NCBI GenBank assembly: GCA_019338205.1
Contig: GCA_019338205.1_4761.1
Source: a phage
DNA: 64,000 nt
Reading direction: 5' to 3' (one strand)
This document shows positions 22,734 to 42,379 of the stretch, one piece after another. Numbering within the stretch: position 1 is the first letter of the stretch; the number at the start of each line of letters is the position of its first letter. The notes under the pieces were generated by a model. It saw nothing but the letters and a program-made list of their open reading frames with translations. It was not told the origin of the DNA and did no database searches. The translations under genes were made by a program, and so were the position numbers.

Positions 22734-23474
22734 TCAAAAATCGGCGAAAGGTGAACCCTTGCCATTAATAGGATCAAACGGATCAATAAAATCTTGTCCT
22801 TCGCTTCTGAATTGCTTATCTTCTTTGTACTGATCTAAGTTGATATCTGTTAACCCGTCCAGATTAGTGATCGGTGCAAGATCCAGATCCGCAAACTCAT
22901 CAACATTAATTCCCTCATTGCGTTGTAATTCTGGTCGCAATTCCTCACCGCTATACACGAATTTCTCTGCAATAATTTTACGCATGGCATTTTTGCCAGC
23001 CTGAAAAAACGGCTGATATGGCTCGACGTAATTAATTTCAAAGAGATCATTACTCATTGGAATATAAATTAAGTCACCTGATTTTGGCTCTTGATCGTCT
23101 ACTTGATGCTTGAATAAGTTAGGATTCACCGTAAACGTTAATTCGTCGTTTGCTGTATAACCCATAGATTGAAAAAAGTTTCCTGCACCTTCATACCCGT
23201 CGAAAGAGTTTATATACGCAGCAAATTTCCATGCTTTAGTAAATTTGCTTTGAACATCCTCCCCAAAGATCATATCTGGTTTGACAAATTCACGAGGGAT
23301 GTAATATAATTCTACACCTCGCATCTGAATAGCTTCGGCGACCATAACGTCGGCTAACGTCTGAGTATTTGTATATTTGTGAAAGTTCACATAAGGATTA
23401 AGAATCTCTGTTTGTCGTGTATTCTCGTAGTCCTTCTGCGATTCAAGGCGAGCAAAAAGAGTGTTGTTAAACAT
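22734..23474 (-). CDS. 14: neck protein gp14
   Basis: 246 aa; synteny between 13 and 15. Confidence 0.75.
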
Positions 23475-28319: not shown

Positions 28320-30122
28320 TTAACCTACCCTTAACCAGCGATGAACGGTGCGATATGGAGGAAGAATACCCATCATTGATGGATCAGCATTTCCAGAATT
28401 AACTTTTACGATATCCTCTCTATATTTCGTAAACGCTGGACCTGCCGCATCAGGATCAACTTGACAGCCACCAATGATAATTGACCCCGTATCGTCTTTC
28501 ACCAAAACACGATCACTGGATTGTAATTCAGGAATCATATCTTTCTTGATTTGATAGGCAACTTCACCACCAGTACCACCAGCGGTGTGTGTAGGTTGTC
28601 CATGAATATCAAGATCGTTATTGTTTAATGCAAAATTCTGGTCGCTGGCATCGGAAGACCAACCAGCAAGAAATTCTCCTTCCGCATACCGAACCCAGAT
28701 ACCAATACCCATATATGTCGCTGGGTTAGCTGGGTTATGTGCGTTTTCGTATATCGTGCCGATCGGATGGAAAATATCAAACAGTGCATATATATCCATA
28801 ATTCGACCTGAATACTCTTCTGCCGGACGAGTGTTTTTCTGGCTAGGATTCTGGAAGTCGGTATATTCAATTTGTTTTGTTAAATTAACTTCGTCTTCGT
28901 TATTGAGATAAATCTTGTCTGCTTTTTCTTTAATTCCGCCGACACCATCCCATTCTAATAGAGTTCCGATATCGTTATTAAACCAACGAATTGTTATAGT
29001 ATCTCTATTGTCCAACGCTTTAGCTAATTTAATCCCTGTTACAATGCTATTCTCATCAAATACCAGTGAATAATCTTCTCCAGACTGTACCCACTGACCG
29101 CCAGCAAGTGCGCAACTCTCTTCGGTTTCTCCGTCAGCACCTTCACAAACAAACGAAGGAAGATCAGCATCACCAGCTTTAATCATTTGAGTACCATTTA
29201 TTAATAACTCAAATGAATTTGGGTTAATTATATCACGTTTACTAACTCCCAAATCAGCATTGGTAAATTCTTTTTTCGTCGATAAATCACCTACCCACAC
29301 TTCACCCGGAATAGTTTCTAGTGCTGTCATTCCGGTATCATACACTCTAATTGTGTGTGTGATATAACTAGATCGGAATGATGCAATTCCGTCCATATAT
29401 GTAATAATTTGAACGGTATCCCCAGCCGAACAAGGAAAACGAAGTTTTATGCTTTTGCCATCAAGTTCAACAAGTGATCCATCCTCACCAATTGAACCGT
29501 AGTTAGAGTCATTACTAAAAGACTTGCCATAATATAAAAGGTTTCCTCGATAATATACTTCAACATTTCGAGTGTTATATGTGTTAGAACCAAATACATT
29601 AGGGAAATCTGTTTGCCCTTCTGTGGCAATATAAACTTCCTTAGCTACTGTGCTTAGGTCAGACGTGGTGATCGTGTCAACTCGCTTGTTTTCGATATAT
29701 TCCCAGCGTCCAGGCGCACAATAAACCAGTTCAACATCCATAAAATCTTTATACAACTCACGGTCGATTGGAGATCCCTTAATGGTATCACCTTGTGCTG
29801 GCTTAAGTGTTACGTTATGAGACGCCCACGAGCGCCAAACATCACGAAGTTTAATTGTCTTGTTATAATCACCAACTCCACCTTTAGGCAATTCAACAGA
29901 AACAGCGTTGTTCGTTGTATTAATCGCCCATGCATCACCAAAATTTGGTTTTAATACTGGTTGTGTGTGAGTTTTCCACGCGCCGGATGCATGAGGGATA
30001 TCACCATCCCCCAGCTTAGTATAAAGTTCAGAAAAGTTGTCATTAATCTTTTGACCGCCTTTTCTTAGATAATCACCTGTACCGTCATCAACAACGTTAC
30101 CGATATTAATTAATTGTTTCAT
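28320..30122 (-). CDS. 10: baseplate wedge protein gp10
   Basis: 600 aa (T4 gp10 602 aa); synteny. Confidence 0.8.
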   Translation of the reverse strand: MKQLINIGNVVDDGTGDYLRKGGQKINDNFSELYTKLGDGDIPHASGAWKTHTQPVLKPNFGDAWAINTTNNAVSVELPKGGVGDYNKTIKLRDVWRSWASHNVTLKPAQGDTIKGSPIDRELYKDFMDVELVYCAPGRWEYIENKRVDTITTSDLSTVAKEVYIATEGQTDFPNVFGSNTYNTRNVEVYYRGNLLYYGKSFSNDSNYGSIGEDGSLVELDGKSIKLRFPCSAGDTVQIITYMDGIASFRSSYITHTIRVYDTGMTALETIPGEVWVGDLSTKKEFTNADLGVSKRDIINPNSFELLINGTQMIKAGDADLPSFVCEGADGETEESCALAGGQWVQSGEDYSLVFDENSIVTGIKLAKALDNRDTITIRWFNNDIGTLLEWDGVGGIKEKADKIYLNNEDEVNLTKQIEYTDFQNPSQKNTRPAEEYSGRIMDIYALFDIFHPIGTIYENAHNPANPATYMGIGIWVRYAEGEFLAGWSSDASDQNFALNNNDLDIHGQPTHTAGGTGGEVAYQIKKDMIPELQSSDRVLVKDDTGSIIIGGCQVDPDAAGPAFTKYREDIVKVNSGNADPSMMGILPPYRTVHRWLRVG

Positions 30123-30973
30123 GTAGCAACCCCGATTTTAATAGTGTCTACGGCTTTAACTGCTAAACGAATATTTTCGCCAGTAGCCTTATACTCTGCA
30201 TATACTTTATCGCCGGAACCGATGAAATAACGAACCGTGTATAATTCGTCTTCTGTCTTCTGCAAAACTGCATATTCCGTCGCATAAACTTTTCCGGCTT
30301 TAGAATCAATCATCAGTAGCGTTTCACTTGAACGCATTTTTGAACCGGATGTATTGCTAGCGGTAGTTAATAATTTGATGGAAACGTATTCTGTTTTTGC
30401 GGCAATAGCAACGTTTGTTGCTACTCCAGTTACGTTAACTGTTTTATCTAATGGCGTTGTTGTATCGGTAAACATACTTTCGATACCCAATCGCCATGTT
30501 ACGCGACTACCTTCAACGGCAGTACACCAAACAGTGACTTTTGAAAATGGTTGTGTTATTGTAGCATCACCGGAATACCCGCTAATAGAATCACCTGCTT
30601 GAGTTCGAATATTGAGCGGTGTCGTCGTTGAAAAGCTACCGTTACTATTTATGAATACAACACCCTCACCAACCTTTGCTTTAGGTAGAATAGCAATAAG
30701 TGCGCCTTGAGTTGTATCGATATCGTGTAGACTCCCAATCTCAACAGCGGAACCAGCGTAGCTTTGACGTGGATGTTTCTGATAGTATCCGGTTGCATGA
30801 ATAACCATTCTTCCTACGCCGTGGTCTACGTCTTTAAACCGCTGATCAGCAAATGCGTCATATATTGAATCAAAGTTATCGTTAATTTTATTACCGCCGT
30901 CATAGAGGATGTCCCCGGTGCTTGGATTGCCGACAGTACCTGTGTCTATTCTTTTCTTTGGAACTTGTGCCAT
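30119..30973 (-). CDS. 9: baseplate wedge / long tail fiber socket protein gp9
   Basis: 284 aa (T4 gp9 288 aa); synteny. Confidence 0.75.
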   Translation of the reverse strand: MAQVPKKRIDTGTVGNPSTGDILYDGGNKINDNFDSIYDAFADQRFKDVDHGVGRMVIHATGYYQKHPRQSYAGSAVEIGSLHDIDTTQGALIAILPKAKVGEGVVFINSNGSFSTTTPLNIRTQAGDSISGYSGDATITQPFSKVTVWCTAVEGSRVTWRLGIESMFTDTTTPLDKTVNVTGVATNVAIAAKTEYVSIKLLTTASNTSGSKMRSSETLLMIDSKAGKVYATEYAVLQKTEDELYTVRYFIGSGDKVYAEYKATGENIRLAVKAVDTIKIGVAT

Positions 30974-31000: not shown

Positions 31001-31008
31001 TATTTATA
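31001..31008 (-). promoter_or_regulatory. T4-type late promoter (TATAAATA) for gene 9
   Basis: Exact TATAAATA on minus strand 28 nt upstream of gp9 ATG, between the inserted cassette and gp9. Confidence 0.55.
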
Positions 31009-31018
31009 AAATACATAC

Positions 31019-31044
31019 AAAAAAGCCGCCCACAAGGACGGCTT
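31019..31044 (-). terminator. intrinsic terminator closing the inserted methyltransferase cassette
   Basis: gccguccuugugggcggc hairpin followed by UUUUUU on minus strand, immediately after the MTase stop. Confidence 0.55.
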
Positions 31045-31048
31045 AGAA

Positions 31049-31888
31049 TTAAATGTCAAACAAATCTGAGAGCGTCCCAGACTCGCTTTCCTGTTTCGGT
31101 AAGGTAATCTCCTTACTTTCTTCTATTTGTTCGTTAGGACGTGATTTAGGCGCTTCTACGGCTTCTTTCTCGTAATACCGAACCTCAACCACTTCCGTTA
31201 AAACGTTGGTACTATGCCATTCATCGCGATAGATTGATGTATCGATCCCACATCCGGCATAAGTCACCAAACCAGTTTGTTTGCTCCATTTTAGATATTT
31301 ATTAGACTTCATGGTCCCGTCATAATAAGGTCTGCCGGAATAGGCAAAACCAGCGGAACCAGTAGGAACAATAAAATAACCTACATCGGCAAACTTCTGG
31401 CCTAATGTCATAACCTTAAATTCAAATTCGCCGCCAGTGTACTCAAATACATCCTTTGTGTCGGTTGTATTGATTTTCCCGAAAGGTGGATTGCTGATCA
31501 CCACATCGAATTTTTCGTTTGACTCAAATTCGAATACATCGCTGGTGATCCATTCTGCCTCCGGTAATAGTCTCTTGCCAATACGCGCAAATTCTGGATT
31601 GAGTTCGACGCATACGATCTTTTCTGGCTTACAACGATGTAACATACAAAAAGATAAGCGACCGATCCCAGCACAAAGATCTAATACTTTTCCTGTGCAA
31701 TGTGCATCGATGGTAAAATCCCATGCAAGCCCTTCTGGGGTAAAGAATGCACCTGAACCGCCTAGACCATCGCCATGATAGTTATTATAGCAAAATTCTT
31801 TTTCTTCATATGTCAATGGGCGATCTGAATTAATTAACTCCATCACCCGATCGTGTAATTTTTGTTCTTGTTTAGAAAGTCGTGCCAT
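31049..31888 (-). CDS. SAM-dependent methyltransferase, N6-adenine DNA MTase-like (279 aa)
   Basis: Motif X-like AFFTPEGLA, motif I VLDLCAGIGRLS, motif IV VISNPPFG in that order (gamma-like); not found between genes 8 and 9 in T4. Confidence 0.55.
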   Translation of the reverse strand: MARLSKQEQKLHDRVMELINSDRPLTYEEKEFCYNNYHGDGLGGSGAFFTPEGLAWDFTIDAHCTGKVLDLCAGIGRLSFCMLHRCKPEKIVCVELNPEFARIGKRLLPEAEWITSDVFEFESNEKFDVVISNPPFGKINTTDTKDVFEYTGGEFEFKVMTLGQKFADVGYFIVPTGSAGFAYSGRPYYDGTMKSNKYLKWSKQTGLVTYAGCGIDTSIYRDEWHSTNVLTEVVEVRYYEKEAVEAPKSRPNEQIEESKEITLPKQESESGTLSDLFDI

Positions 31889-32220
31889 TATTTAACCTTT
31901 GCTGTGACGGTAACGCTATGTCCCAAATAAACATGAGACATAAAGAACACAAAGTTTTTAAATTGCGGATTCTTACGAATCCATCGTTTCAATTTTCGAA
32001 TGCAAGTTATACGATGATCATAATTAGAATAACTAAATTCAATACCCTGTTTCATCATCTCGTGCATTTCTTCGTATGTGTGCCATTGGTTATCATGTTT
32101 ACAAAACCAATGAGTACCATAGAGTTTAGGATCTTGTGCACGTAGACCATAGTAATGCTTTTGCATTGGGAACTTAGCTTTATTCATTGTATAATGCAGT
32201 TTAATATTTACGCGTGCCAT
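31888..32220 (-). CDS. hypothetical protein (110 aa), co-transcribed with the MTase
   Basis: Stop overlaps MTase start (ATGA); His/Tyr/Trp-rich; no motif recognised. Confidence 0.4.
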   Translation of the reverse strand: MARVNIKLHYTMNKAKFPMQKHYYGLRAQDPKLYGTHWFCKHDNQWHTYEEMHEMMKQGIEFSYSNYDHRITCIRKLKRWIRKNPQFKNFVFFMSHVYLGHSVTVTAKVK

Positions 32221-32465
32221 TTTCTAGTTCCCCACATACCGAAAGTTGGATTATACACAAAATAGATAGCTTCGTCGATAGTCTTGAATCGTTTAGTGTC
32301 ATTCATGAAGTTGATACCCTCCCATAGTTCATCGGTGTAATCGGCTAGTGATGAATGAGTATGATCGATGATCTCTCCAATCTTTTCACCGTTCGCGATC
32401 ACATCCCAACCGCAAGGGGATACCTGAATTGCTTCACAATTATCTGTAAATTTACGACGTGCCAT
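32208..32465 (-). CDS. hypothetical protein (85 aa), first gene of inserted cassette
   Basis: Strong RBS GGAGG; overlaps next ORF by 13 nt. Confidence 0.4.
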   Translation of the reverse strand: MARRKFTDNCEAIQVSPCGWDVIANGEKIGEIIDHTHSSLADYTDELWEGINFMNDTKRFKTIDEAIYFVYNPTFGMWGTRKWHA

Positions 32466-32575
32466 AATTTATCCTCCGTTGTTTAGATGTGTGTATTATA
32501 CCTTACCAAATAAGATTGTCAACACCAAAAATGGAAAAAGCCAACTCTCTCGAATTGGCTTTTAAAATCATACAC

Positions 32576-33571
32576 TTAGAACTCAAACAATACAGAAACA
32601 AGTTCTGTTTGATCTAATGACCGAACGATAGGTTGTCGGTTTTCCATGTAGATCATTTCGCCTGAGTGTGGCTCTAAGTCTTGCGGTCGGTACTTATCTT
32701 TGACCGCTTTAACGTCTGGATCGCTAGGGCGTGCTTTCTTTTCCAATGGGTTAAGGATAATGCTTAACTGACGGAAACCAGTATTACCCACTAACGCGGT
32801 AGTTGGGAATTGCGCAGAGTCCATATAAGCCTGAAAACGCAAAGTTACTACTTTCAGCCGATAAAGCAGATTATAGTCATTATACCAGGTGATCACATTG
32901 TCATAGCCCCAACGCGCCGGATCTTGTCGCAGTTCATCGGGGAACGGTACAACAATATGTTCATTGGTGCAACGGTTGATCGCCGCATCAGGTGGAATTG
33001 TGTACAGATATTCCCAACGATACCCATCACCCATATCAATAGAATCGCCCTTTCCTACAGGTGGCGCAATTGATTCATGAGTAGGTGTCCACTTTCCGCC
33101 CAACTTCAAACACTCTACTTTAGCGTCAATGCTTGAAATCGAGCAGTAACCGCGATCAGGAACATCGGTTACGCGATACACCATCCAGCCGCTACCAACA
33201 TCAGTTCGGTTATATGGTGCTGAGTTTACGACAACAATGTCATTGATAAAGAACGTGCGCGGGTTATCCTGTCCGGTATCACCCCAGTCTTTACGAGGGA
33301 TAACCGCATCAAGAAGTGATTTGTTAATCTTAACCGCCCCCATCATATGGGTCCACATGTCAACAACACCAGCCGTTGAATCGGTCGGATAAGGTGGGGC
33401 AAAGCCCACCTCTTTTTCGTTTTCTGACCACGGCTCCGAACGTCCAAACGTTCCATAAATTGTAATTTGATTTGCTCCATCGCCTACAGAATTATAGAAA
33501 TTCAGAAGTTTTTCCGTTCTGAATTGACTAGTAATGATTGAGCGATAGATCACACTATTTTCATTAGCCAT
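32576..33571 (-). CDS. 8: baseplate wedge protein gp8
   Basis: 331 aa (T4 gp8 334 aa); synteny; start overlaps gp7 stop. Confidence 0.75.
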   Translation of the reverse strand: MANENSVIYRSIITSQFRTEKLLNFYNSVGDGANQITIYGTFGRSEPWSENEKEVGFAPPYPTDSTAGVVDMWTHMMGAVKINKSLLDAVIPRKDWGDTGQDNPRTFFINDIVVVNSAPYNRTDVGSGWMVYRVTDVPDRGYCSISSIDAKVECLKLGGKWTPTHESIAPPVGKGDSIDMGDGYRWEYLYTIPPDAAINRCTNEHIVVPFPDELRQDPARWGYDNVITWYNDYNLLYRLKVVTLRFQAYMDSAQFPTTALVGNTGFRQLSIILNPLEKKARPSDPDVKAVKDKYRPQDLEPHSGEMIYMENRQPIVRSLDQTELVSVLFEF

Positions 33572-42371: not shown

Positions 42372-42379
42372 TATTTATA
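42372..42379 (-). promoter_or_regulatory. T4-type late promoter (TATAAATA) for gene 53
   Basis: Exact TATAAATA on minus strand 33 nt upstream of gp53 ATG in the divergent region. Confidence 0.5.

Follow-up and report, generated by a model that had tools for sequence, protein, structure and literature searches.

The closest analogue in mechanism to the system predicted here is the eukaryotic pair of DNMT1 and PCNA, in which a short PIP-box peptide links the enzyme, a DNA methyltransferase (MTase), to the sliding clamp, and newly replicated DNA is preferentially methylated (PMC9690074). DNMT1 maintains C5-cytosine methylation, is large and has an internal PIP box towards its N-terminus, whereas the MTase of the phage genus Krischvirus comprises a 238-aa amino-MTase core and carries its epitope at the C-terminus; the clamp partner is PCNA for DNMT1, while the phage clamp gp45 is predicted for the Krischvirus MTase and the bacterial beta clamp for its relatives. 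gp43, gp55 and gp33 bind gp45 by their C-termini, which are hydrophobic and acidic; these epitopes are interchangeable, and the one of gp55 is placed on a divergent unstructured linker (PMC2988020). Like these three T4 proteins, the Krischvirus MTase has a hydrophobic, acidic peptide at its extreme C-terminus, carried by a divergent unstructured linker. Known ligands of gp45 comprise the polymerase, the late sigma factor with its co-activator, and the clamp loader; the literature searched lists no methyltransferase among them, whereas the Krischvirus case concerns a methyltransferase.

Among phage enzymes, the Dam proteins of T4 and T2 resemble the Krischvirus MTase in being phage-encoded, in lacking a cognate nuclease and in a presumed function in protection or marking of phage DNA. 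T4 Dam, however, belongs to a different, alpha-class family, Krischvirus phage JSE has a separate dam gene elsewhere, and we know of no clamp motif in Dam. Small m6A enzymes with an NPP(Y/F/W) motif, encoded in the replication modules of alphaproteobacterial phages (PhiLM21_p027 and relatives, GANTC-specific), have a proposed role in replication (PMC5537653). As a candidate relative, PhiLM21_p027 aligned with the Krischvirus MTase at motif IV only (hhalign probability 48%); its type shows no detectable homology beyond this motif, and no clamp motif has been described for it. PhiOC_p213 of Ochrobactrum phage OC, another candidate, is CcrM-like according to the published description and the cloning primer and apparently a different protein. 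Neither enzyme could therefore be used to infer the specificity of the MTase. Compared with M.TaqI, HsdM, the Eco57I/MmeI type and MAD2 of the MADS system, the Krischvirus enzyme lacks a target-recognition domain, an S subunit and a fusion to a nuclease or helicase, and its identity to gamma-class N6-adenine DNA MTases is only 13-20%. Based on the comparisons below, we consider it probable, at roughly 0.6, that this gene encodes an orphan adenine-type DNA MTase which is tethered to the sliding clamp and expressed from an insulated early unit.

The window, a stretch of 64,000 nucleotides (contig GCA_019338205.1_4761.1), belongs to a Krischvirus with 99% identity to JSE. The initial annotation had described a three-gene cassette between genes 9 and 8, and all of its features were recovered, on the minus strand. 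The upstream boundary is gene 8, encoding a baseplate wedge subunit (32576..33571; Pfam Phage-Gp8, E 2e-143; phrog_977), and the downstream boundary is gene 9, encoding the baseplate wedge tail-fibre connector (30119..30973; Pfam T4_gp9_10_N, E 3e-40). In the direction from gene 8 to gene 9 follow ORF85 (85 aa; 32208..32465; phrog_16603, E 7e-61) and the basic ORF110 (110 aa; 31888..32220; phrog_12630, E 2e-68), both without assigned function, and the MTase gene (279 aa; 31049-31888). The strong ribosome-binding site and the overlapping, coupled starts were found as described: GGAGG (32473-32477) lies 7 nt 5' of the ATG of ORF85, the start of ORF110 overlaps the end of ORF85 by 13 nt, and TAATG is common to the end of ORF110 and the start of the MTase gene. 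Within the MTase, residues 1-238 form the catalytic core (31175..31888), residues 239-271 a disordered linker with low pLDDT and acidic composition (31076..31174), and the last eight residues, TLSDLFDI-COOH, the predicted gp45-binding peptide (31052..31075).

Comparison of the gene 8-9 junction among the 59 Krischvirus records that match closely revealed the cassette in 58, at 90-99% identity; it is therefore a trait of the lineage, fixed across the genus, rather than an insertion in a single strain. In the four other T4-like genera compared (Tequatrovirus RB32, the Slopekvirus-like Klebsiella phage ALF_ER54, Pseudotevenvirus leB and Tulanevirus phiAS4), gene 8 directly neighbors gene 9, as had been expected, the two being 9-292 nt apart, and against these the junction is filled in the Krischvirus lineage only. 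Of the proposed insertion, the occupation of an otherwise closed junction thus stands, while the idea of a strain-level event does not; the presence of the same genes in all close relatives, which the initial annotation had named as an argument against its own reading, is largely what we found. The MTase gene itself has been annotated for long, and a list of 2006 gives it as RB49ORF143w.

The MTase also occurs in other surroundings. A divergent relative (L098) with a 64%-identical MTase carries it at the gene 8-9 junction without ORF85 and ORF110. Both small ORFs are also absent from RB43-type phages, where the MTase gene is located between the helicase gene 41 and the primase gene 61. At a further locus (L074) the start of the homologue and the stop of a DnaB-like helicase gene overlap. 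Homologues in Citrobacter and Enterobacter are tail-less genes at the edges of prophages; an origin from a restriction-modification system was considered by way of these bacterial copies and discarded, as they have no evident nuclease partner.

The initial annotation had assumed late expression. We found terminators on both sides of the cassette, a perfect sigma-70 promoter and no late promoter TATAAATA upstream of it nearer than position 42372. Directly after gene 8 the terminator scan identified an intrinsic terminator (AAAAGCCAATTCGAGAGAGTTGGCTTTT followed by a T run; 32536..32563), which is invariant in three Krischvirus strains and annotated as a terminator in GEC-3S. It is followed by a sigma-70 promoter of the T4 early type (TTGACA-16 nt-TATAAT; 32495..32522) with 12/12 matching positions, whose hexamers are invariant and whose spacer is variable in the three strains; six perfect promoters of this kind occur in the window versus 0.12 expected. 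The cassette is closed by a second intrinsic terminator (AAGCCGTCCTTGTGGGCGGCTT and TTTT; 31023..31044), with a 9-bp stem including six GC pairs and likewise annotated in GEC-3S. As the initial annotation had described, the closing terminator is followed by the T4-type late promoter TATAAATA of gene 9 (31001..31008), whose end lies 27 nt upstream of the ATG of gene 9. This is the sole copy between 19544 and 42372, and it lies 3' of the cassette. The order of terminator, TTGACA-16-TATAAT, MTase gene, terminator and TATAAATA is retained in the divergent relative. The unit thus combines the characteristics of a T4-type early unit, namely a strong sigma-70 promoter, no late promoter and terminators at both ends. 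In view of the terminators at its boundaries, the perfect sigma-70 promoter of the cassette itself and a TATAAATA that follows but does not precede it, late expression is unlikely, and the cassette is probably an insulated early transcription unit, as judged from these signals. The terminator after gene 8, the sigma-70 promoter and the clamp-type C-terminus, of which the last is the most informative feature, had been absent from the initial annotation.

The three motifs on which the MTase had originally been recognized were located as FFTP (residues 48-51; 31736-31747), VLDLCAGIG (residues 68-76; 31661-31687) and NPPF (residues 133-136; 31481-31492). They represent motifs X, I and IV and stand in the order of the gamma class. 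In an alignment of 24 homologues with 46-70% identity, the motif X region GAFFTP (residues 46-51), upstream of motif I, is invariant, as are L71, C72, A73, G74, I75 and G76 of motif I and N133, P134 and F136 of motif IV, and P135 is conserved to at least 90%. The PADLOC model mad2 matched the MTase with an E-value of 4e-17 over residues 34-139, including the FFTP region, and several Type II MTase models matched as well. Among the Pfam models, Eco57I scored 28.6 against a cut-off of 25.3, N6_Mtase 16.7 against 20.4 and the generic MTS 38.5 against 23. The best NCBIfam matches were weak ones to PrmC and RsmC, and an identity as PrmC/HemK, which some GenBank records give, found no support (TIGR03534 37.5 bits versus a cut-off of 199.1, residues 64-137 only). 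Sequence and profile searches of the PDB yielded weak generic Rossmann matches with E-values of 1e-3 to 1e-4, which did not separate DNA from RNA enzymes; the rRNA m6A MTases METTL5 and PH1948 matched in the same range (sequence E-values 1e-3 to 1e-4).

It would be conceivable that the enzyme acts on RNA (m6A or m2G in rRNA or tRNA, as METTL5, RsmC or TrmN) or on a protein glutamine (as PrmC) and reprograms host translation early in infection. We regard this as quite unlikely. Matches of this type are confined to the generic residues 60-140 and lie far under the curated cut-offs (37 versus 199 bits for PrmC), whereas the FFTP region aligns with DNA MTase models; METTL5 and PH1948, with their rRNA substrate, have neither the FFTP N-terminal region nor a clamp motif. 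Moreover, the predicted sliding-clamp anchor and the position of homologues inside replication modules fit a DNA enzyme. Profile searches, which had been proposed as a way to expose an rRNA or protein MTase, returned DNA MTases as the best cross-family matches.

The assignment as an orphan enzyme of the N6-adenine DNA MTase type was likewise borne out by the missing nuclease partner, the X-I-IV order and the mad2, Type II and Eco57I matches. No cognate restriction endonuclease lies beside the MTase gene, its neighbors being gp8, gp9 and the two small ORFs without a match to nuclease or defence families. Neither a target-recognition domain nor an S-subunit-like neighbor was found, and the structure is predicted as a single Rossmann domain of 238 aa with an acidic core (pI 5.2) and a disordered tail. 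The core of the protein is an orphan gamma-class amino-methyltransferase, with the adenine N6 in DNA as its most likely target. In the literature searched we found no methylome or enzymology of any family member, and the papers on an "unknown DNA modification" in Slopekvirus KP15/KP27 and Krischvirus SAP/TB34 neither mention the MTase gene nor report m6A data. Against the preferred reading stands the virion DNA of Krischvirus TB34, which carries the gene and for which "no detectable modified DNA" was described on the basis of HPLC-MS (PMC13390438). The same paper is silent on methyladenine even for Dam-encoding phages, so that sparse m6A may have gone unreported.

ORF85 and ORF110 gave no meaningful match in Pfam, NCBIfam and PADLOC (ORF85 a chance-level NCBIfam match, E 0.08). 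ORF85 is found in Krischvirus and a few rV5-like phages only. ORF110 homologues with 58-60% identity occur in Vequintavirus. The predicted fold of ORF110 reached a pLDDT of 62 in AF2 with an alignment of four sequences (five homologue clusters were found), and a Foldseek search of the PDB returned nothing below E = 1. In the initial annotation both ORFs had been regarded as partners of the MTase. On a reading of this kind the three might constitute a late module in which the small proteins aid the enzyme in specificity or anti-restriction and DNA is marked around packaging. Translational coupling of the ORFs and their co-conservation in 58 Krischvirus genomes would agree with such a module, but the divergent relative has a lone MTase at the same junction, RB43-type phages also have the MTase without the two ORFs, and the rV5-like phages FV3 and HMD-6 have the ORF pair without any MTase. 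Within Krischvirus, ORF110 exists in two alleles (100% and about 72% identity), in contrast to the adjoining MTase, which is conserved at 97-99%, and ORF85 of RB49 aligns in two pieces only. The promoter of the unit, moreover, is of the sigma-70 and not of the late type. We therefore consider a late three-protein module very improbable. Because the MTase occurs alone in the relative and the pair occurs without it in rV5-like phages, ORF85 and ORF110 are not obligate partners but small, presumably early genes in their own right; they accompany the MTase in Krischvirus only.

For the analysis of the MTase tail, gp43 sequences were taken from JSE and other Krischvirus records rather than from the window, which does not include gp45. 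The MTase ends in ...ESGTLSDLFDI and JSE gp43 in ...KVASLTDLFDI, so that seven of the last eight residues match, the free C-terminus included. The gp43 tail is 100% conserved in 59 Krischvirus records and homologous to the T4-type ...ASLDFLFG. For comparison, JSE gp55 ends in ...PSLDQFYEIEN, and the T4-type ends are ...KASLDFLFG for gp43 and ...SPSLDFLYEAND for gp55. In the predicted structure residues 247-279 have a pLDDT below 50, and the 41 residues of the tail (239-279) include 11 D/E versus 5 K/R, with a pI of 4.3. The linker varies by Krischvirus strain (KQESES, EQETAS, EDKSPS), while SGTLSDLFDI is invariant. A strict regular expression for clamp ligands matched 4 of 484 phage ORFs, namely gp43, gp55, the MTase and one 70-aa ORF. 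In RB43-type loci the clamp-ligand expression matched gp43, gp33, gp55, the MTase and one 59-aa ORF on the opposite strand, which we read as spurious. Recent copying of the 3' end of gene 43 was considered as a source of the epitope; identity is limited to the last 14 nt, with different codons upstream, and such copying is thus not supported. With a hydrophobic, acidic end like that of the cognate polymerase and a divergent unstructured linker, the MTase shows the sequence characteristics of a gp45 ligand. This suggests that its tail is a sliding-clamp anchor of the kind used by the phage DNA polymerase.

A survey of 80 homologue loci on viral contigs in IMG/VR allowed a comparison of tails across the family. 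The gp43-type tail of Krischvirus was found at three loci. An RB43/Slopekvirus-type tail (...LFTFTIE or ...FDFRIE) occurs at nine, adjoining T4-type genes for gp41, gp43 and gp45; in the RB43 type, the MTase tail resembles that of its own polymerase loosely. At 30 loci the protein ends in Q-x-[SD]-L-F (e.g., QLSLFDAA, QLDLFGMAA), a motif of the bacterial beta-clamp type, and T4-type replication genes are absent within 10 kb of all 30. Hda carries QLSLF as its conserved beta-clamp motif (PMC5397184). Tail type accordingly tracks the type of replisome encoded nearby, and the MTase of the window carries the gp45-type epitope and not the beta-clamp motif. Among 150 representatives at 50% identity, Qxx[LIMF][FLWY] within the last 14 residues was present in 32, versus 0.8 +/- 0.9 (maximum 5) for shuffled tails, an excess of about 40-fold.

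A further 32 of the 80 loci, including a jumbo phage and a 230-kb Aeromonas phage, encode tail-less homologues, so that the tether is accessory. The frequency of these homologues would also be in line with an ordinary, free-diffusing orphan anti-restriction DNA MTase whose C-terminal likeness to the polymerase is functionless, all the more as orphan MTases are common in phages and JSE has two others (dam and a 223-aa MTase). We regard this as unlikely in view of the match with gp43 in seven of eight terminal residues up to the free C-terminus, of an epitope that stays invariant while the linker varies, and of the enrichment of beta-clamp motifs in relatives together with the correspondence between tail and nearby replisome. 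If the tail were functionless, the locus would be that of an ordinary, long-annotated orphan MTase gene. A tail that does bind could also serve mainly in competition or regulation, depriving the polymerase or gp33/gp55 of gp45 by titration, with catalysis being secondary. The gp45 ligands share one interchangeable epitope (PMC2988020), so that an additional ligand could compete; the catalytic motifs, on the other hand, are invariant in the 24 aligned homologues, and the core is conserved with or without tail, which argues for enzymatic activity as the selected function and renders a role mainly as clamp competitor extremely unlikely.

For the preferred reading, a clamp-tethered DNA MTase, we propose the following course of events. 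Within the late baseplate operon of the Krischvirus lineage an insulated, presumably early unit has become fixed, with gene 9 being re-started by its own late promoter. The MTase would be produced early in infection, dock on DNA-loaded gp45 clamps at or behind the replication forks and methylate newly synthesised phage DNA, the flexible acidic linker joining the core to the clamp-binding peptide. Such a tether would keep a small acidic enzyme without a separate target-recognition domain on the DNA and make it processive, and it would confine marking to DNA from the phage replisome. The likely benefit would be that progeny DNA is shielded from restriction or marked as self.

A wider reading is possible, and we put it forward as tentative and with more doubt than conviction: the MTases may constitute a widespread, apparently undescribed family of phage enzymes which are recruited to replication forks by swappable clamp peptides, of the gp45 type in T4-like phages and of the beta-clamp QxSLF/QxDLF type in phages using the host replisome, as a viral counterpart of DNMT1-PCNA. 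Krischvirus DNA made by the phage replisome would then be self-marked against restriction or against nucleases of the phage itself, and host DNA would remain without the mark. Krischvirus phages have no hydroxymethylcytosine but retain T4-type nucleases for host DNA such as DenA.

If the tail docks on the clamp, the system would represent a simple, genetically tractable case of replication-coupled DNA methylation outside eukaryotes and add a new client class to the "tool belt" of gp45 and the beta clamp. Its design would be modular, with one catalytic core and different clamp anchors depending on the replisome that a phage uses. It would help to explain how a fast-replicating phage could completely methylate hundreds of genome copies, and it would provide a candidate for self-marking in T4-like phages without modified cytosine. 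On the practical side, cocktails for phage therapy include Krischvirus phages, and how sensitive these are to restriction bears on their host range.

In the window, which belongs to a JSE-like Krischvirus, genes 7, 8, ORF85, ORF110, the methyltransferase (MTase) gene, 9, 10, 11 and 12 follow one another on the minus strand. Directly 3' of gene 8 (32576-33571; Pfam Phage-Gp8, E = 2e-143) the terminator scan placed a terminator (32536-32563), followed by a sigma-70 promoter, TTGACA-16-TATAAT, with a 12/12 match (32495-32522). ORF85 (85 aa, 32208-32465) has GGAGG 7 nt upstream of its ATG and overlaps ORF110 (110 aa, 31888-32220) by 13 nt, which in turn is joined to the MTase gene (279 aa, 31049-31888) by a TAATG overlap. 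A second terminator (31023-31044) precedes the T4-type late promoter sequence TATAAATA (31001-31008), which ends 27 nt upstream of the ATG of gene 9 (30119-30973; T4_gp9_10_N, E = 3e-40); all these elements are on the minus strand. The initial annotation had described the three ORFs between the baseplate genes 8 and 9, their ribosome binding site, overlapping starts, terminator and the late promoter of gene 9, as well as the MTase motifs FFTP (residues 48-51), VLDLCAGIG (68-76) and NPPF (133-136), all of which were confirmed; the terminator after gene 8 and the perfect sigma-70 promoter behind it had been overlooked.

With Escherichia phage JSE the region shares 99.1% identity, and full-length matches at 90-99% identity were found in 58 Krischvirus genomes (RB49, Phi1, JSE, GEC-3S and others), all of which carry the same three-ORF set between genes 8 and 9. 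The two genes are direct neighbours in Tequatrovirus RB32, a Slopekvirus-like Klebsiella phage, Pseudotevenvirus leB and Tulanevirus phiAS4. Because the set is present across Krischvirus genomes, while genes 8 and 9 adjoin in these four other genera, the insertion is genuine, but it is an old one that has become fixed in the Krischvirus lineage. The idea of an inserted cassette stood, that of a special strain-level event did not, such general presence being one of the findings which the initial annotation had set against it. RB49ORF143w already appeared in 2006 among novel ORFs, described as having a 'methyltransferase small domain' (PMC1524935). Two ENA metagenome contigs (L098 and L099, 34 and 24 kb) represent a divergent Krischvirus-like phage with a 255-aa MTase alone between genes 8 and 9, which is 64% identical to the window MTase and ends in ...TKTLDFVDFSEI.

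Perfect sigma-70 promoters of this kind number six in the window against 0.12 expected. In three strains the promoter hexamers and the gene 8 terminator are invariant and the spacer varies; the GEC-3S annotation agrees with the same promoter and terminator reading, and the divergent relative keeps the layout of terminator, TTGACA-16-TATAAT, MTase, terminator, TATAAATA and gene 9. Between 19544 and 42372 the sole copy of TATAAATA is the one 3' of the cassette. Since the sigma-70 promoter is perfect and conserved, terminators flank the unit and TATAAATA comes only after it, we infer an insulated early unit, read by host sigma-70, within the late operon, and not the late-expressed gene that had been assumed. 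No transcript data bearing on the timing of the cassette were found. A further perfect promoter, TTGACA-18-TATAAT (23281-23310, plus strand), lies inside a 246-aa minus-strand ORF (22734-23474), a neck protein by synteny; it is antisense to late structural genes and is followed on the plus strand by no more than a 60-aa GTG ORF.

ORF85 and ORF110, whose matches were limited to PHROG families of unknown function, had been regarded as partners in a three-protein module, which their distribution does not bear out. The MTase stands without them at the 8-9 junction of the divergent relative, RB43-type phages have the MTase with neighbours unrelated to either ORF, and in the rV5-like phages FV3 and HMD-6 the adjacent pair occurs without the MTase, amid tiny early ORFs. 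The pair in these Vequintavirus phages (FV3: locus L008, JQ031132.1 12605-13425) has 60-70% identity and the same 13-nt overlap; many Vequintavirus genomes contain ORF110 alone. This distribution suggests exchange between unrelated myovirus groups. Within Krischvirus, ORF110 comes in two alleles, at 100% and about 72% identity, next to a 97-99% conserved MTase: about 39 records share 95-100% identity with the window and about 24 (RB49, GEC-3S, E26 and MIZ5 included) only about 72%, with MTase and ORF85 at 90-100% identity beside both alleles. The split looks like a local mosaic replacement. The alignment of RB49 ORF85 (AY343333.1 73902-74145) falls into two pieces, together 95% of the query, and three 'hypothetical protein' features underlie this region; in the type phage the ORF may carry a frameshift or be split. 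The predicted structure of ORF110 is poor (pLDDT 62), and the model matched no known fold. Because MTase and ORF pair occur apart, ORF110 has two alleles and RB49 ORF85 is in two pieces, the genomic evidence argues that neither ORF is an obligate MTase partner, and both are treated as putative independent small early genes.

The MTase belongs to phrog_3820 ('DNA methyltransferase', E = 1e-117). Pfam gave MTS (1e-9) and Eco57I (2e-6, above its cut-off), with N6_Mtase below threshold, and the best cross-family match was PADLOC mad2 (4e-17, residues 34-139), ahead of many Type II MTase models. The orphan DNA-type MTase proposed initially is supported; its closest sequence relatives are gamma-class DNA adenine MTases and MAD2 of MADS. 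The label 'release factor glutamine methyltransferase' of some records was rejected because the NCBIfam matches to PrmC, RsmC and PrmB are far below cut-off and confined to residues 60-140. Fold and motifs say amino-MTase of gamma topology, directed at an exocyclic nitrogen, and by themselves do not separate DNA from RNA substrates; RNA m6A MTases among the closest folds count against the DNA reading. The core is acidic (pI 5.2), and the MTase has no separate target-recognition domain. It is not T4 Dam. JSE has a separate predicted dam, of T4 type and 270 aa long (NC_012740.1 41872-42684), and another predicted DNA MTase of 223 aa (120467-121138), which makes the window-type MTase the third in Krischvirus. 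Alphaproteobacterial phages have GANTC-specific MTases in their replication modules, which are comparable in gene position to the window-type MTase but are not its homologues.

The catalytic core extends to about residue 238 and is followed by a 41-residue acidic, disordered tail (pLDDT below 50 for residues 247-279) terminating in ...ESGTLSDLFDI-COOH. Of the known ligands of the sliding clamp gp45, DNA polymerase gp43, late sigma factor gp55 and its co-activator gp33 end in JSE with ...EKVASLTDLFDI, ...PSLDQFYEIEN and ...NTLDI, and T4-type (RB32) gp43 and gp55 with ...EEKASLDFLFG and ...SPSLDFLYEAND. Hydrophobic and acidic, the C-termini of gp43, gp55 and gp33 are what binds gp45 and are freely interchangeable, and gp55 carries its epitope on a divergent, unstructured linker (Geiduschek and Kassavetis, PMC2988020). 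The gp43 tail is 100% conserved (59 Krischvirus records). In the MTase, SGTLSDLFDI is invariant between strains and the linker variable (KQESES, EQETAS, EDKSPS); the predicted tail thus has the anatomy of gp45-ligand termini. A strict clamp-ligand pattern, applied to the last 10 residues of 484 ORFs (164 kb of Krischvirus), matched only four: gp43, gp55, the MTase and a single ORF of 70 aa. As the only other phage ORF fitting this pattern, the latter hypothetical protein (JSE NC_012740.1 119085-119297, ...YTLEQLLDGAL) may be another gp45 client. In RB43-type loci the pattern retrieved gp43, gp33, gp55, the MTase and a 59-aa opposite-strand ORF, which is read as spurious. A recent copy of the gene 43 3' end as origin of the tail was rejected, since identity to the MTase gene is limited to the last 14 nt. 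JSE gene 43 (NC_012740.1 17062-20204) is annotated as two CDS (402 and 468 aa, 527 bp apart), and the polymerase gene seems to be split in Krischvirus.

C-termini were also read from 80 IMG/VR loci encoding MTase homologues. Three carry the Krischvirus gp43-type tail (...SGTLSDLFDI); nine, on 10-180-kb RB43/Slopekvirus-type contigs beside T4-type gp41, gp43 and gp45 genes, end in ...LFTFTIE or ...FDFRIE after a Pro/Glu linker; 30, on 12-77-kb contigs, have Q-x-[SD]-L-F after an Ala/Pro/Glu-rich linker (e.g., QLSLFDAA, QLDLFGMAA, QADLFGVAA, QASLFGDAA); and six show related LDLF or LDFG-type endings. The tail is absent from the remaining 32, mostly on enterobacterial prophage-type contigs, which counts against a clamp tether, as does the merely loose match between the RB43-type MTase tails and their own polymerases (...SLNTLFGDDW, ...SLNDLFGDW or ...SLSDLFDF near the nine loci). 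QLSLF is a conserved beta-clamp-binding motif, e.g., in Hda (PMC5397184), and no T4-type replication genes lie within 10 kb of the Q-x-[SD]-L-F loci. Searching 1.84 billion representatives with a profile yielded 342 clusters at E <= 1e-30; among the best 150 of these, 32 have Qxx[LIMF][FLWY] within their final 14 residues, against 0.8 +/- 0.9 in composition-matched shuffles (maximum 5 in 1000) and 0.4% of internal windows. Replication modules also house the MTase gene: the RB43 copy is flanked by helicase gene 41 and primase gene 61, and at one Q-x-[SD]-L-F locus its start overlaps the stop codon of a gene for a DnaB-like helicase. A single catalytic core thus appears to bear varied clamp anchors, the predicted type fitting the replisome encoded nearby, which is the strongest argument both for a functional tail and for DNA as substrate. 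On Citrobacter freundii and Enterobacter chromosomes (L002-L007), tail-less homologues of 238-242 aa and 54-55% identity are encoded at the outer end of prophage-like regions, as the last gene before host genes; one such protein occurs on 887 contigs.

We favour, at a probability of about 60%, a clamp-tethered, early-expressed orphan DNA MTase. It would be made early from the sigma-70 promoter, bind DNA-loaded gp45 through its C-terminal peptide and methylate nascent phage DNA, most probably at adenine N6 because of NPPF and motif X. The tether would provide DNA association to a small enzyme without target-recognition domain, and only DNA synthesised by the phage replisome would be marked. The enzyme probably serves to protect phage DNA from restriction or to mark it as self; since Krischvirus lacks the hmC pathway yet keeps DenA, self-marking is an attractive, though speculative, extension. 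Against this counts Krischvirus TB34, which carries the MTase gene and had 'no detectable modified DNA' by HPLC-MS (PMC13390438); methyladenine is nowhere mentioned in that paper, even for Dam-encoding phages. Krischvirus SAP reportedly contains glucosylated hydroxymethyl-type cytosines and TB34, at 99.96% identity, canonical DNA, a difference for which no pathway genes were identified and which is unexplained according to the authors (PMC13390438).

The closest mechanistic analogue of the proposed enzyme is DNMT1-PCNA (PMC9690074). Full-text searches of the literature, mostly outside subscription journals, found no clamp-binding prokaryotic or phage MTase, which is not evidence that none exists. 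The MTase gene as such has long been annotated; what appears undescribed is the clamp anchor, together with its switching across the family. As initially described the cassette is ordinary; the predicted clamp tail opens specific, cheap and decisive experiments.
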